A stretch of DNA of 35,137 nucleotides from an uncultured archaeon. Lineage in GTDB: Archaea; Asgardarchaeota; Lokiarchaeia; Sigyniarchaeales; SOKP01. How positions within the stretch are numbered: the first letter of the stretch is position 1; every line of letters starts with the position of its first letter. The notes beneath the pieces were generated by a model that saw only the letters and a list, made by a program, of their open reading frames with translations, ran no database searches and was not told the origin of the DNA. The position numbers and the translations under genes were made by a program. Shown here piece after piece: positions 21,486 through 27,388 of the stretch. The DNA lies in NCBI GenBank assembly GCA_964583985.1, contig CAZOYD010000038.1, positions 1 through 35,137 of the forward strand, written 5' to 3'.

Positions 21486-22568
21486 TTACATAAAAATAGT
21501 TGAAAGAAAGAACAATATGGGTGTTAAAATTACATTATATGATAAATTATCATCAATTTCTAAATTAAGAAAATCTAACACGCCGATAATAACAGCTCCA
21601 ACCGAAGAAAGAATAAGTAAACCAAAGTATGATAAATTGTATATTCCATTCAATAAAACTAGGCAGATAAATCCTGAAACAAAACCACTTATCATTCCAG
21701 CAATCAAACCTTCATATGTTTTATTTGTCTTCCTTATGGTTCTATGACCAAATACTCTACCAAATAAATTAGAAGCCATATCTCCAAATATTGATATTGT
21801 CATAGAAGTACATATCACTAATGGTCCAATTGGTTGGATTATTCCATATAAAATTATAATTGAAAAACAACCTACACCCATTGAAATATGAGGTCCAATT
21901 CTTGTTTGGATCTCTTTTTCTCGGAGTATTAAATTTACAGGCTTTAAAGGGTAGTAATCCGGTCTAATAATTCGTATTAAATCTACCGAAATTAAACCTA
22001 TGAGAGAAATTCCAACTAAAAAAATGACCAAATATTGCGTGAAAATCATTTTGTTTCCTTCTAAATTGTAGAGAGAAAAAAACAAATCAGAGATTATCGG
22101 GGGTAATAGATTAAGAATATATATAAATACATTCTGAACTAAAAAACCTAATGTAAAATAAAAAAAAATAATAGCTAAAACAACTAAATGGGTTAATTTA
22201 CGATAAATATCATATTTTAAAGGTAATTGTTGAGAATATACAATATAATATCGCTTCCATGAATCATCTTGACCCTTAATTCTTCTTTTTTCCCTGTGAA
22301 TAAAGTAATATAATATGGGAAAATAACCTATTATAAAAAAAATGATAAAAGTATCAAATGGGAAAACAATAAAATCAGTTGTAGATAATTTTAAGATTAC
22401 AGTAAGAATTAAACTTATTGTTATACTCAACATCAAAACTATTGAATTACTAAGATTGTTAATAAATGCATTAGTTTCTCGCTTTCTTCTTGATAATATT
22501 GCGATATAAAATAAAATGCCTGAATAAAAATAAAAAATACAAACAGTAACCAAAGATAATATATTCAA
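21486..22568 (-). CDS. CTP-dependent polyprenol/diacylglycerol kinase family membrane protein (dolichol/phytol kinase-like)
   Basis: RKLTHL, GDMASNLFGRVFG....KTYEG, IDDNL; many TM helices. Confidence 0.85.
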   Translation of the reverse strand: MNILSLVTVCIFYFYSGILFYIAILSRRKRETNAFINNLSNSIVLMLSITISLILTVILKLSTTDFIVFPFDTFIIFFIIGYFPILYYFIHREKRRIKGQDDSWKRYYIVYSQQLPLKYDIYRKLTHLVVLAIIFFYFTLGFLVQNVFIYILNLLPPIISDLFFSLYNLEGNKMIFTQYLVIFLVGISLIGLISVDLIRIIRPDYYPLKPVNLILREKEIQTRIGPHISMGVGCFSIIILYGIIQPIGPLVICTSMTISIFGDMASNLFGRVFGHRTIRKTNKTYEGLIAGMISGFVSGFICLVLLNGIYNLSYFGLLILSSVGAVIIGVLDFLNLEIDDNLSYNVILTPILFFLSTIFM

Positions 22569-22658: not shown

Positions 22659-24065
22659 TTAAAATTTTGATTCATCAACGATTGGCATATCTGAAGACTT
22701 CAAAGCCTCAGAAATTTCTTCAGAGGGTAATTCGAAGTCTATTAAATTCCCCTCCATAAATTCCTTATAAGCTAAAAGATCAAAATATCCATGTCCACTG
22801 AAATTAAATACAATTACTTTTTTTTCATTATTTTCATTCGCTAATACAGCTTGATTTATAGCTTCTTTAATAGCGTGACAGGTTTCAGGAGCAGGCAGAA
22901 TCCCCTCAGTTCTTGCGAATTGAAGTCCTGCTGCAATAACTTCCGTTTGAAAGTGCATCGAAGATGTCATAAGTTTGTTATTTATTAGGTTTGAAATAAT
23001 CGGAGCAATTCCATGATATCTTAGTCCTCCAGCATGTATTGGGTGTGGAATGAAACTATGCCCTAAAGTATGCATTTTAAGAATAGGAGCCTTTTTTGCG
23101 GTATCGCCATAATCCCATCTATATTCTCCTTTAGTCACACTCGGACAAGCTCTAGGTTCAACTCCTATAAATTGAGTATTTGGGAGTTTCCCTTCCAATT
23201 TATCTCTCATAAATGGTAACGCAAGTCCACTGAAATTTGAACCCCCACCCATACACCCGATTATTATATCGGGCTCTGAAATTCCAACTTTACTAAGTTG
23301 CATTTTTGTCTCTTGACCTATTATGGTTTGATGCAAACATACAAAATTAAGCACACTACCTAAGGAGTATCTTGCATCATCTCTAGTTAAACTATGTTCT
23401 ACAGCCTCAGAGATTGCAATTCCTAAACTTCCTGGATGTTCTGGATTTTTATCATAAAATATTCTGCCAGACATCGTATGTTTTGAGGGACTTGCATGTA
23501 CTTCGCCATTATAAGCTTTCATTAGTATTTTCCTCCCTGGTTTCTGAATGTAACTCGCTCTTACCATATAAACAACACATTTCAAACCAAATAAATTGCA
23601 ACCATAAGAGAGTGCTGAACCCCATTGCCCTGCTCCTGTTTCAGTAACCAATTCCTTTAAGCCCTCTTTTTTTGCATAAAATGCTTGAGCTAAAGCAGTA
23701 TTAGGTTTATGGGATCCTGTTGTTGAAACTGATTCATTTTTGTAAAAAATCTTGATATCATCGCCTTCTATTCCCAAATCCTTTTCTAATCCATAAGCAC
23801 GATGGAGAGGTGTTGGTCGATATGTCTGTGCATATATTTCCCTTAATTCTTTCGGAATGGGAATCGTTCTTTCTTGTGATACTTCTTGCATCACACATTC
23901 CTTCGGAAATATAGCAAAAGCTAATTCTGGAGGTGCTGGCATTCCATCCATTGGATTTATTAATGGAGTTATGGGTAAAGGTAAATCAGGTAAAATATTC
24001 ACCCATTCTTTTGGGACTTTATTTGGTTCTAATAAAATTCTTGCATTAAATTTACTCATTTTCAC
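22659..24065 (-). CDS. trpB2: tryptophan synthase beta chain type 2 (TrpB2)
   Basis: GSHKPNTA (PLP lysine), TETGAGQWGSAL, GSLGIAISEA, GCMGGGSNF, IHAGGLRYHG, FNFSGHG; long N-terminal extension typical of TrpB2; no trpA nearby. Confidence 0.96.
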   Translation of the reverse strand: MKMSKFNARILLEPNKVPKEWVNILPDLPLPITPLINPMDGMPAPPELAFAIFPKECVMQEVSQERTIPIPKELREIYAQTYRPTPLHRAYGLEKDLGIEGDDIKIFYKNESVSTTGSHKPNTALAQAFYAKKEGLKELVTETGAGQWGSALSYGCNLFGLKCVVYMVRASYIQKPGRKILMKAYNGEVHASPSKHTMSGRIFYDKNPEHPGSLGIAISEAVEHSLTRDDARYSLGSVLNFVCLHQTIIGQETKMQLSKVGISEPDIIIGCMGGGSNFSGLALPFMRDKLEGKLPNTQFIGVEPRACPSVTKGEYRWDYGDTAKKAPILKMHTLGHSFIPHPIHAGGLRYHGIAPIISNLINNKLMTSSMHFQTEVIAAGLQFARTEGILPAPETCHAIKEAINQAVLANENNEKKVIVFNFSGHGYFDLLAYKEFMEGNLIDFELPSEEISEALKSSDMPIVDESKF

Positions 24066-24215
24066 ATATCCTTCAAATTTTAATTATAAGTTTATGTCTC
24101 CTTATATTAATGGAATTCAAAAATATAATGCATAATAGTCAAGGCAATTATTAAATAACTTGAAAGAAAAATAAGCGGGATTATTAATATGATTTAAACC
24201 AATGAAAGAGCGTTA

Positions 24216-24269
24216 TCAAGAACGCCACTGCCACTGCCAACGCCAAAAAGCCATTTTTTCAGTGAACAT
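24216..24269 (-). CDS. putative Trp-rich leader peptide (TrpL-like), MFTEKMAFWRWQWQWRS
   Basis: ATG TTC ACT GAA AAA ATG GCT TTT TGG CGT TGG CAG TGG CAG TGG CGT TCT TGA TAA; four TGG in seven codons; same strand as trpB2 and 150 nt upstream of it. Confidence 0.8.
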   Translation of the reverse strand: MFTEKMAFWRWQWQWRS

Positions 24270-24418
24270 AATTTAAACCCATATTAAAGATATTTAATTT
24301 AAAACTCAAATTAACTTATAAATTTAATGTTTTGATAATTATATTTTCAATAATATCTGAAAAGTGAATAATTATATATTATTAATAATGAGAATGAAAT
24401 GAGAATATGAAGCTATAT

Positions 24419-24823
24419 TTAGCGACCTTCGAAAATCTTATTCAAATTTTTTGCTGCTATTCGCATGACTTTGACGGTCTTCATCAGTGTTTCAATTACG
24501 GTTCCTGCACAAACAATTACTAAACGTCCTGCATTACTCACAATAATATACCCGTTTTCTGCTCTTACTATTATTTCACTTAAATCTTCTTGAAATAAAG
24601 TTTGAATCGTTGAGCTCCCTGTCATTAATAAGGCAGAAGCCAATCCGCAGAATTGGTCTCCATCAACTTTATATTGTGGTAAGGCAGAGAAAGCTATCTG
24701 ATATCCCTCCTTTGAGACGAGTGCAATAGCCTCTATATCTGCATTTGAAGTAATAAATGTTATTTGAGGGCTAATTCTCTCAATATCATTACTAGTAATT
24801 CCTAGATCCGAGCCGAATTCCAC
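24419..24823 (-). CDS. roadblock/LC7 (MglB-like) domain protein
   Basis: DIEAIALVSKEGYQIA, helix 'FCGLASALLMTG', LSEIIVRAENGYIIVSNAG, C-terminal helix. Confidence 0.9.
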   Translation of the reverse strand: MEFGSDLGITSNDIERISPQITFITSNADIEAIALVSKEGYQIAFSALPQYKVDGDQFCGLASALLMTGSSTIQTLFQEDLSEIIVRAENGYIIVSNAGRLVIVCAGTVIETLMKTVKVMRIAAKNLNKIFEGR

Positions 24824-25084
24824 TTATAACACCATTTGGCAATTAATTTTATTTTTAAAATATACGAAAATTAGTTATTATAATTTATTATAAAAATTAT
24901 ATCTTTTATGTTTTTATTTTTATACATTGAAAAATCTAATCTTGATTAGATACTAATAAAAAAAATATAATCTGTTATGTCTCTACTTAAATTTTAATAC
25001 TTTATCAACTATAAGATATTTAAATTTTTAATTGGTTGAAGCTTAAAACCTTCAAACTAAATTCGCAAGAAGAAGGCTCTAATT

Positions 25085-27388
25085 ATGATCACCACTCGAG
25101 AATCAATTAATTATCAATTTTCTCTAATTTTTGGTTATTCTTCTCCCAATGAAATTGTAGTTGGAGATGTTATTGGTCCAGGTAAATTAACTACAGGGAA
25201 AATGAATCAATTATCAAAAGATGTTATCACATATTTAAGGATGTATAATGCTATTTTAAGAGATTATACGGGTTCTGAACTATTTAGTATTGAATTTGAA
25301 CTCTATAATTATGATGAAAAAGAAGCATCATTAAAAATCTTCCCAAAATCAATGTTATTAATCCCTGGAAAATTTAAAGATTGTGAAAGCTTACTTCTTG
25401 CATTAAAACCAGAAACTGGATACTTGGATACACATAAATCAAGAGAATCAGTTAATAATGTAAGCAAATTATTCTTCGAAGTAGAAGAATTCATGGACCA
25501 TCCAGATTTAAATAAAGATCAAAAACAAATGGTGCTTCGAAACTTTGCATCTAGATTTAGCAAAAAATTATTTGGAGACTTACTCGAAGATAAATGGAAT
25601 AAAAAGCTTATTGGAGTCAGTTCATCTTTACCTACAGAAAAAGAAATGTTAGACACGTTTGCATCAATTAAATCAGATGTTAAATATTATTGGAATAAAA
25701 GACCAATTGAAATTAGTTTTTCAAACCCTTCTTTTCAAAAATTTAGAGATCCCCTTGATGAAAATTCTTCCAAAGAACATTTAAAATATGCAATTTCCGA
25801 GCCTAGTGCAAATTATATTGTTGAAAAAACACTTCAGTTAGGTTCGAATTTATTAAATTTGGCTAATGCAGGAACGATTGATGAATCAAAAGAAAGTGTA
25901 ATTTCATTTATAATCGATCGAATTAATGCTAAGATTGAACAAATTAACGATTTTCATATTGTACAGTGGGTGATTGATGAATTTGAAAAGGATATGAAGA
26001 TTTTAGATGCAAATTTCAGCCACTTTTTAGAAAAATCTAAAAATTTTCTAGTTTCTGGAGAATCAGGTAACTTAAAAGAATTATTAAAAATATATGGGGA
26101 TTATATCCATCAAGAACTTGGAAATAGTGATAAAATTTATGATGAAATCTTCACTTTAGCTGATCAATCAATATCACAATCAATTCGTAATTCAGATAAA
26201 CTTCGAGCTAATGATTTAAATTCTTCTATAAATATTTTTTCTGAAATTGTAAAAGCAAGCTTTGATATAATTAGAGAGAGTTTACCTCAATATTTAGCTC
26301 GAAGAAGATTAAAGACTTTTATATTGAATCTAATTAATCAATTAAAGAGTAAATTTACTCATGAACAAGAACCTGCTAAAACAATTGGAATTGATCTTGT
26401 AATTAAATTTCAAGAGTTTTTGTTTAATCAAATTGAACTAAGTACCATCCATTCTACTAAGGGATCTTATTATGAGGAGGAAATTTTAACTAAAGAATTT
26501 AAAAAAATAGTAAAACAGAGTATTTCATTATTCTTTGAAAAATCTCAGTTGGAGATAAGTGATATTATCTCTTTCGCAGAAATTCAAACGCAGGCATCAA
26601 ATACAATAAAGAAACATATTGACAATTTTAAAACATATTCAACAGAATTGGAATACTTGATAAGTTATATTTTGCGTTACAGTACCATTAACCGATTTTT
26701 AAAAGAAGAATCTAAAAATAATATCAATGATCCAGTTACATTTTCTAATAAATTCCATCGATTTTTAGAAAAACGTATTGGGGGAATTAATTTAGCATGG
26801 AAATATTATGTTTTAGAATGGATAACGGATTATGCGAAGCAATTTTTTAAAGTTGAGGAACCGCGAAATTGGACCTTAAATGAAGTTGTATCAAATTTTA
26901 TTAACTATTTAGAAGAAAGAGAATTACAGGAACAAAAAATTGATTACTTTTATAAATTCTTAGATCAATATATTGCAAAGGTTTCCAATGAGTCAGAACA
27001 AAATTCATTACTAGAATTTTATAAGCAATTTGAGTACTGTAGAGGAATTGCTACTGAATTCCCATTATATATTCGAAAAAGAATAGAAACCGAAATTAGC
27101 ATATTGGATATGAAACAAGAAGAATTATTACCAACTAAGTTTCTTAAGTTAAATGAACAAGATACTTTTTATAATTACATTGAAGAAGTGAATTTAAAAT
27201 ACTTCTCTAAATTGATTCCTCGTCCAGTTTCTATAATTTTAAATCATACATTTACGGATAATGAAAGAGAGTTGTTTAAAAGAGAATTGTTTTATGTTTT
27301 AAATTTCAAGTATTGGGCAAATAAGTCATTATTCGAAATTTCAGATAATTTTAAAGAGGTTTATAGAGCATGGTTGATAGAAGAATAA
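25085..27388 (+). CDS. large hypothetical protein (767 aa; alpha/beta N-terminus, long helical body)
   Basis: Long intact ORF; no catalytic motif recognised. Confidence 0.8.
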   Translation: MITTRESINYQFSLIFGYSSPNEIVVGDVIGPGKLTTGKMNQLSKDVITYLRMYNAILRDYTGSELFSIEFELYNYDEKEASLKIFPKSMLLIPGKFKDCESLLLALKPETGYLDTHKSRESVNNVSKLFFEVEEFMDHPDLNKDQKQMVLRNFASRFSKKLFGDLLEDKWNKKLIGVSSSLPTEKEMLDTFASIKSDVKYYWNKRPIEISFSNPSFQKFRDPLDENSSKEHLKYAISEPSANYIVEKTLQLGSNLLNLANAGTIDESKESVISFIIDRINAKIEQINDFHIVQWVIDEFEKDMKILDANFSHFLEKSKNFLVSGESGNLKELLKIYGDYIHQELGNSDKIYDEIFTLADQSISQSIRNSDKLRANDLNSSINIFSEIVKASFDIIRESLPQYLARRRLKTFILNLINQLKSKFTHEQEPAKTIGIDLVIKFQEFLFNQIELSTIHSTKGSYYEEEILTKEFKKIVKQSISLFFEKSQLEISDIISFAEIQTQASNTIKKHIDNFKTYSTELEYLISYILRYSTINRFLKEESKNNINDPVTFSNKFHRFLEKRIGGINLAWKYYVLEWITDYAKQFFKVEEPRNWTLNEVVSNFINYLEERELQEQKIDYFYKFLDQYIAKVSNESEQNSLLEFYKQFEYCRGIATEFPLYIRKRIETEISILDMKQEELLPTKFLKLNEQDTFYNYIEEVNLKYFSKLIPRPVSIILNHTFTDNERELFKRELFYVLNFKYWANKSLFEISDNFKEVYRAWLIEE

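Follow-up and report, generated by a model that had tools for sequence, protein, structure and literature searches.

The DNA analysed here (the window) is a stretch of 35,137 nucleotides (nt) from an uncultured archaeon of the Asgard order Sigyniarchaeales (assembly GCA_964583985.1, contig CAZOYD010000038.1, positions 1 to 35,137), and the element in question is a short open reading frame (ORF) rich in tryptophan (Trp) codons, located on the minus strand upstream of trpB2, the gene for a stand-alone TrpB-like enzyme. Our analysis indicates that this leader ORF is very probably a tryptophan sensor read by the ribosome. We put at roughly one half the probability that it is a translated, cis-acting Trp sensor for trpB2, in which stalling at UGG codons would block a hairpin, relieve termination and so raise expression. 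The ORF, its Trp codons and the geometry of the hairpin next to them are conserved and linked to Trp genes. Ribosome-mediated Trp control of trpB2, which a first-pass annotation of the window had proposed, is supported by the comparative recurrence of the leader before trpB2 and before trpD operons; translation of the leader, stalling of ribosomes on it and termination as the output step are inferred.

A leader ORF with four tryptophan codons

The first-pass annotation, made from the letters of the DNA alone, had described a minus-strand ORF at 24269-24216 with 17 codons, four of them TGG, and this description holds in all details.

24216-24269, minus strand: leader ORF of 17 codons, ending in TGA and adjoined by a further stop, TAA
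24225-24245, minus strand: W-x-W-x-W-x-W run of four Trp codons, the proposed sensing codons; TGG retained across relatives

The ORF starts with the ATG at 24269 and ends with TGA at 24218-24216, which is followed by TAA at 24215-24213, and its TGG codons occupy 24245-43, 24239-37, 24233-31 and 24227-25. An in-frame TAA (24275-73) is found two codons 5' of the ATG. The TATA-like strings upstream also lie where the annotation had placed them (24322-15 and 24304-24297), and the Asgard-like host that it had suspected fits the nearest named relatives, which are metagenome-assembled genomes of Promethearchaeota. The patch around the ORF (24190-24279) has a G+C content of 0.43, versus 0.12-0.25 in the AT-rich flanks, and a spacer of 156 nt separates the end of the ORF from trpB2.

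TGG accounts for 4 of the 17 codons here, and the leaders of relatives contain 2-5 Trp codons; tryptophan represents 0.9% of the residues in the short intergenic ORFs of the same genome. A genome-wide scan of 14,739 such ORFs returned the leader ORF as the sole credible Trp-rich leader. As judged from these sequence comparisons, a chance origin of the ORF is excluded, because it is unique in the genome scan and because a leader recurs at every orthologous locus of the order that was examined.

The annotation had also considered similar leaders for other amino acids, and here the outcome was negative: none turned up in this genome when its 14,739 short intergenic ORFs were screened for runs of a single amino acid. 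The other Trp-, Thr-, Arg-, Val-, Cys- and His-rich ORFs were rejected, some being out-of-frame gene starts (GTPase P-loop, FAD motif, glycosyltransferase antisense) and the remaining ones preceding unrelated genes (NTP_transferase, NosD, Band_7, altronate dehydratase, Arf-like GTPase, glutamine synthetase, ferredoxin). On contig C6 of genome G000 (78101-78053, minus strand), an ORF of 15 codons, four of which encode Trp, overlies the 3' end of a gene; no same-strand gene lies downstream of it, and it is probably due to chance.

No known RNA family was detected in 23500-25200 by Rfam cmscan with E values up to 10, the only hit being a chance match to a small nucleolar RNA. A frameshift at a Trp codon into a hidden frame reaching trpB2 was considered as well and is unsupported in this window. 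No minus-strand ORF of at least 60 amino acids separates the leader from trpB2, the frame of trpB2 itself is open for no more than 8 codons 5' of its ATG, and the alternative frame from the Trp codons stops at 24183.

Conservation within the order

We searched 40 related genomes at the level of the order and found TrpB2 in 36 of them; of the resulting 30 loci, 29 have enough upstream DNA for inspection. All 29 have a short sense-strand ORF that starts with ATG (GTG or TTG in a few cases) and ends with W-x-W or W-x-W-x-W, followed by 1-4 residues and the stop codon. These ORFs range from 12 to 46 codons, and are otherwise unrelated in length and peptide. Within the genus the leaders can be aligned (alignment A1, 21 species), while between the four families of the order the leader peptides share only the Trp codons and their position near the stop. 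TGG stays across the relatives, and the codons in between change (R, Q, P, A, S, H). One clade has lost the middle Trp codon and the stop in the hairpin loop and has kept two in-frame Trp codons. Short ORFs that retain their Trp codons precede orthologous trpB2 genes across the order and beyond, which is the comparative pattern that the first-pass annotation had suggested as a check on its proposal.

The reading frame is maintained as well. Of 12 lineage representatives, 10 have an ATG 5' of the Trp codons, in frame and with no stop in between, versus 0.09-0.18 per lineage in shuffled sequences; a binomial estimate puts the significance at ~1e-7, a conservative Fisher combination at 0.018. This bears on the explanation that the element is untranslated, being a structured RNA, a DNA operator or a set of UGG repeats to which a TRAP-like protein binds, with the ORF a by-product of a GC-rich stem. 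Part of the conservation is indeed at the nucleotide level, as the clade without the middle Trp codon and the loop stop has kept most nucleotides and the second and third codons barely vary in the genus, and the covariation of the hairpin and the long-range helix described below shows selection on RNA structure. An untranslated element does not, however, account for an ATG-started open frame with TGG triplets that is kept in those 10 lineages of unrelated sequence, or for TGG being invariant while the adjoining triplets change. The two to five repeats are also few for such a site, the stem sequence differs between lineages, which argues against a fixed-sequence protein site, and no Rfam family matches. 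We consider this explanation highly improbable.

Two loci, L185 (in the closed genome G031) and L186, have leaders ~430-470 nt upstream of trpB2, with an apparent 1-nt deletion relative to the congener L030. Although this shifts one TGG to another frame, these leaders still have an ORF that starts with ATG and retains two Trp codons in frame, and the same long hairpin. The closed genome G037 has a leader as well.

RNA structure and proposed mechanism

Several elements lie around the leader ORF or overlap it, all on the minus strand.

24316-24322, minus strand: distal TATA box TTTATAA, likely promoter of the leader transcript; near-invariant in the 21-species genus alignment
24270-24288, minus strand: box 1, 5' strand of a long-range helix, in the predicted 5' untranslated region just before the leader ATG; pairs with 24202-24181 in the minimum free energy (MFE) fold
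24209-24226, minus strand: hairpin with its 5' arm beginning inside the last Trp codon and the stop codon in its loop; found by terminator scan, RNAalifold and covariation
24201-24208, minus strand: U-rich run directly 3' of the hairpin; T-rich in the genus alignment, CTTTC to TTTTTC
24181-24202, minus strand: box 2, near-palindrome, 3' strand of the long-range helix; from the MFE fold and the pairing in A1
24162-24174, minus strand: oligo-T tract, candidate archaeal termination site; T-rich throughout the genus alignment

A search of 23900-24500 gave a single terminator-like site, the hairpin with its T-run, versus 0.2 expected from shuffles. As such a site (24226-24209 plus CTTTC) it is weak and overlaps the end of the ORF, and archaeal termination signals differ from bacterial ones. 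The hairpin is also the only helix returned by RNAalifold for the 21 species, with 91% of the alignment cells paired and 3 pairs changed on both sides. Over a wider set of leaders, a compact GC hairpin 0-3 nt from the last Trp codon was found in 27 of 50, versus 5-13% of the control TGG or TGGC sites, using a strict stem criterion. This criterion replaced the hairpin offset taken from MFE folds, which was uninformative (88% of leaders versus 35-63% of controls). Other lineages have different stems at the same place, and some of the compensatory changes are clear, e.g. in family f9. The stop codon lies in the hairpin loop in this genus, in family f5 and at locus L181. In family f6, a hairpin and a long U run come after the leader, immediately 5' of the trpB2 ribosome-binding site, and the gap between leader and trpB2 in f5 is only ~90 nt and has a T6 run.

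The long-range helix encloses the ORF in this genus. It has 86% of the A1 cells paired, and one of its pairs occurs as G-C in 13, A-U in 3 and G-U in 3 cases. The alternative, a self-hairpin of box 2, is weaker (73% of cells paired); the support for these alternative pairings (box 2 self-hairpin versus long-range helix) is weak.

Based on this geometry we propose the following mechanism. Transcription would start ~25 nt downstream of the distal TATA box (24322-24316), which itself lies ~53 nt 5' of the leader ATG. With ample charged tRNA-Trp, the ribosome would translate all four UGG codons and finish at the stop in the loop; the hairpin (24226-24209) and the long-range helix around it would then form, and most transcripts would be terminated within 24208-24162, either in the U-rich run or in the oligo-T tract. 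Under Trp scarcity, the ribosome would stall at a UGG codon, and its footprint would extend over the 5' arm of the hairpin, an arm that starts within the last Trp codon. Hairpin formation would thus be prevented, the polymerase would read on and trpB2 would be made.

Points against the mechanism and a possible second promoter

A number of observations weigh against this mechanism. The hairpin is weak, with 6 pairs and ~-5.6 kcal/mol, and the whole leader folds no better than shuffled sequences (z = -0.28). We detected no mutually exclusive antiterminator (1:2, 2:3 and 3:4 pairings), RNAalifold on the 21 species giving one hairpin only. For archaeal polymerases, an oligo-T tract suffices for termination and a hairpin is not required. 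A ribosome at the stop codon would also mask the hairpin, and hence the model would work only if release is fast. A canonical Shine-Dalgarno motif is absent 5' of the leader ATG. The leader ORF has been lost in 5 of ~35 genomes of the same family (L112, L114, L116, L117 and L119, in two other genera), and to this extent it is dispensable. In addition, a TATA-like block (24110-24102) located 45-50 nt before trpB2 is kept in the leader-less L112 and L114, and since this proximal block survives the loss of the leader, trpB2 may have its own proximal promoter.

24102-24120, minus strand: conserved proximal block with the TATA-like element, possible second trpB2 promoter; conserved in A1

The caution in the first-pass annotation that a second start site could lie near trpB2 thus stands, given the conserved block. 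A genome-wide positional TATA profile for judging both promoter candidates gave no clear peak. A near-palindrome, TTGAATTCCA (24120-24111), is found just 5' of the proximal TATA-like element. In relatives the corresponding stretch (24102-24140, minus strand) has two ATTG..CAAT inverted repeats, which could be a transcription-factor site or small RNA hairpins.

All the leader-less relatives keep the synteny of the Roadblock gene and trpB2. The TrpB2 tree nests them inside leader-bearing relatives, so that two independent secondary losses are indicated. In L112 the distal TATA box, the hairpin's 3' arm and box 2 are all still present despite the loss of the ORF.

These points make us consider that the same Trp-codon sensor has a different output, post-transcriptional or in trans, with trpB2 transcribed mainly from the proximal promoter. 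The output could be RNA stability or processing, the long-range helix closing the translation of the leader, or a terminated leader RNA or peptide acting elsewhere. The conservation of the block 24110-24102 in leader-less relatives would fit, as would the lack of an antiterminator and the covarying long-range helix, which sequesters the region just 5' of the leader ATG. There are bacterial precedents for a trans-acting trp leader RNA and peptide (PMC7968998, PMC7298713), and for a translational output from leaderless Cys-rich short ORFs (bioRxiv 10.1101/834739). Such an output is harder to reconcile with the constant position of the leader, which invariably shares the strand of a Trp gene and lies immediately 5' of it, and with the spacing in f5, which is too short for a separate promoter. 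The distal TATA box of L112 was kept after the ORF was lost, as expected if this box drives trpB2. We regard a different output as unlikely, and attenuation of trpB2 in cis remains our preferred reading.

trpB2 and tryptophan supply

22659-24059, minus strand: trpB2, 466 amino acids, stand-alone TrpB-like pyridoxal phosphate enzyme, the regulated gene; Pfam PALP, NF009057, TIGR01415
24069-24074, minus strand: Shine-Dalgarno-like GAAGGA, 9 nt 5' of the trpB2 ATG; an AAGGA-type motif is found at the same place in relatives

The trpB2 product scores 638 bits against NCBIfam NF009057 (cut-off 366) and 591 bits against TIGR01415. Searches of the genome, which is 100% complete by marker genes, found no TrpA, no indole-3-glycerol-phosphate synthase (IGPS/TrpC) and no chorismate-binding TrpE, each of these families being found in 14/14 control genomes; TrpB1 was not found in the genome either. 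Because these enzymes are missing from a complete genome, trpB2 is, by all that the searches indicate, an orphan gene and TrpB2 the only Trp-forming enzyme. We presume that TrpB2 makes tryptophan here from indole plus serine or phosphoserine, i.e. by indole salvage. A starvation-induced switch on trpB2 makes physiological sense.

The gene upstream encodes a Roadblock/LC7 protein (Pfam). Directly 3' of trpB2 is an ORF of 360 amino acids (21489-22568, minus strand) with no Pfam or NCBIfam match.

Leaders in other families and before other trp genes

Among 150 genomes sampled from the phylum, we observed Trp-ending leader ORFs before trpB2 also in families f5, f6, f9 and f18, with unrelated sequences; no Trp leader was seen in many other families of this sample. 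A W-ending leader ORF also lies directly upstream of trpD in three relatives from different families that have the full pathway by Pfam, where trpD is the first gene of a trpD-C(F)-B-A cluster. Since leaders precede these trpD-first clusters, the element is tied to tryptophan and not to trpB2 as such.

This association is also relevant to the idea that the ORF is a small gene in its own right, equipped with a promoter and a terminator and encoding a Trp-rich micropeptide, which merely neighbours trpB2 and does not regulate it. The ORF does have its own TATA box, and the hairpin and T-run come directly 3' of its stop. A functional micropeptide would hardly be expected, though, to conserve only its Trp residues while its sequence varies freely and its length ranges over 12-46 residues, or to be encoded always upstream of Trp genes, including the trpD operons. 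We give this idea very little credence, somewhat less than that of an untranslated element.

Four loci of family f9 (L154, L156, L157 and L158) have three close TGTACA repeats 5' of the TATA box, ~60-110 nt upstream of the leader ORFs. We take these repeats to be the TRP-box motif bound by TrpY. If they are TRP boxes, they would link the leader promoter of f9 to Trp control, and the arrangement suggests that repressor and leader control are stacked on one promoter in this family.

The outgroup set covered ~77 TrpB2 loci from bacteria and other archaea. A few of its bacterial TrpB2 loci have Trp-rich leaders, as expected, and no convincing Trp leader was found at its nine non-Asgard archaeal TrpB2 loci.

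Trp-rich leader ORFs precede trpB2 at the bacterial loci L099, L075, L085 and L091, one of which has four consecutive Trp codons. One Bacteroidota leader has the same first four residues as some Asgard leaders. A recent transfer from bacteria was rejected: the TrpB2 proteins of the order form one well-supported clade apart from the bacterial ones, including those with Trp leaders. Because the TrpB2 clades are separate, the likeness of the Bacteroidota peptide start is probably due to chance.

Comparison with known regulatory systems

The closest parallel is the enterobacterial trpL leader (RF00513), where the Trp codons lie in the 5' arm of hairpin 1:2 and the stop codon lies in its loop. The archaeal element shares this arrangement. 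In both, a short ORF precedes a gene of Trp biosynthesis on the same strand, the Trp codons cluster 2-3 codons from the stop, and a U-rich run lies downstream. The archaeal element differs in having an archaeal host with a eukaryote-like polymerase, in showing no sequence match and no match to the RF00513 covariance model, and in having no antiterminator/terminator pair that we could detect. Its Trp codons alternate (W-x-W), whereas those of trpL are adjacent, a long-range helix surrounds the ORF, and the regulated gene is an orphan trpB2. The element works like a trpL attenuator in our proposal, but it is not a member of that family, because it has no Rfam match, no set of alternative hairpins and a different transcription machinery.

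TnaC of the Escherichia coli tryptophanase operon is likewise a short leader peptide with Trp near the stop. TnaC has a critical Trp and holds the ribosome near the stop codon; it senses free Trp via a conserved peptide and induces a catabolic operon. An arrest peptide of this type, in which free tryptophan and the nascent peptide block release at the stop so that Trp and not starvation induces, would be in keeping with Trp residues 2-4 residues from the stop and with a stop inside a structure. However, the peptides show no conservation beyond the last Trp (RS, RF, RL, WQ, H, RP, REL), there is no TnaC-like W/D/P spacing, and the genes (trpB2, trpD-C-B-A) make tryptophan and do not degrade it. 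Only the Trp codons are conserved in the leaders, and hence there is no real resemblance to TnaC. Of the explanations that we weighed, we hold this one to be the least probable.

An analogy may be drawn with eukaryotic upstream ORFs (uORFs) of the GCN4/ATF4 type, in that a short upstream ORF would couple the amino-acid supply to the downstream gene. These uORFs act by scanning and re-initiation and not by codon-specific stalling. In the archaeal element, unlike in them, 156 nt with structures and T-tracts lie between the two ORFs, and trpB2 has its own Shine-Dalgarno motif.

Mycobacterial leaderless short ORFs encoding polycysteine are Cys-responsive attenuators acting on operonic gene expression (bioRxiv 10.1101/834739). 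They resemble the proposed system in that a tiny ORF rich in the cognate codon lies at or near the 5' end of the transcript and ribosome stalling controls the genes downstream. They are bacterial and respond to another amino acid, and homology is not implied.

As for archaea themselves, little was known about Trp regulation apart from TrpY until the activator Tar was identified in 2019 (PMC6737238). The described regulators are the TrpY repressor with its TRP boxes in Methanothermobacter and the Tar activator in Thermococcus (PMC6737238). TrpY and Tar also provide archaeal control of Trp genes, and the TGTACA repeats in f9 suggest that such control may coexist with the leader there. They are DNA-binding proteins acting at promoters, in contrast to an ORF, predicted to be translated, combined with an RNA structure. 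We found no TGTACA boxes in 24270-24420, upstream of the leader in this window.

Significance

Leader-peptide attenuation is a textbook bacterial mechanism and relies on coupled transcription and translation. Our searches of the full-text literature returned no report of it in archaea, the Asgard group included. We see the chances as evenly balanced that the element represents the first ribosome-mediated leader-peptide attenuation by amino acids in Archaea, ancestral to a Loki-type Asgard order, present also in several other Asgard families, and of a design of its own, where alternating Trp codons run into a stop-holding hairpin inside a long-range helix.

The leader would have a practical use in annotation. 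It would mark Trp-regulated genes, and it would mark an orphan trpB2 as a genuine Trp-supply enzyme where the organism otherwise cannot make Trp.

Asgard archaea are the closest known prokaryotic relatives of eukaryotes. A conserved Trp-codon leader in Asgard genomes would add a new regulatory layer to archaeal gene control and would bear on the origin of uORF-type control. If our proposal is true, the leader would be a natural read-out both for the coupling of transcription to translation and for how a eukaryote-like polymerase terminates, and the closest prokaryotic relatives of eukaryotes would be using the position of the ribosome on the nascent transcript as a metabolic signal.

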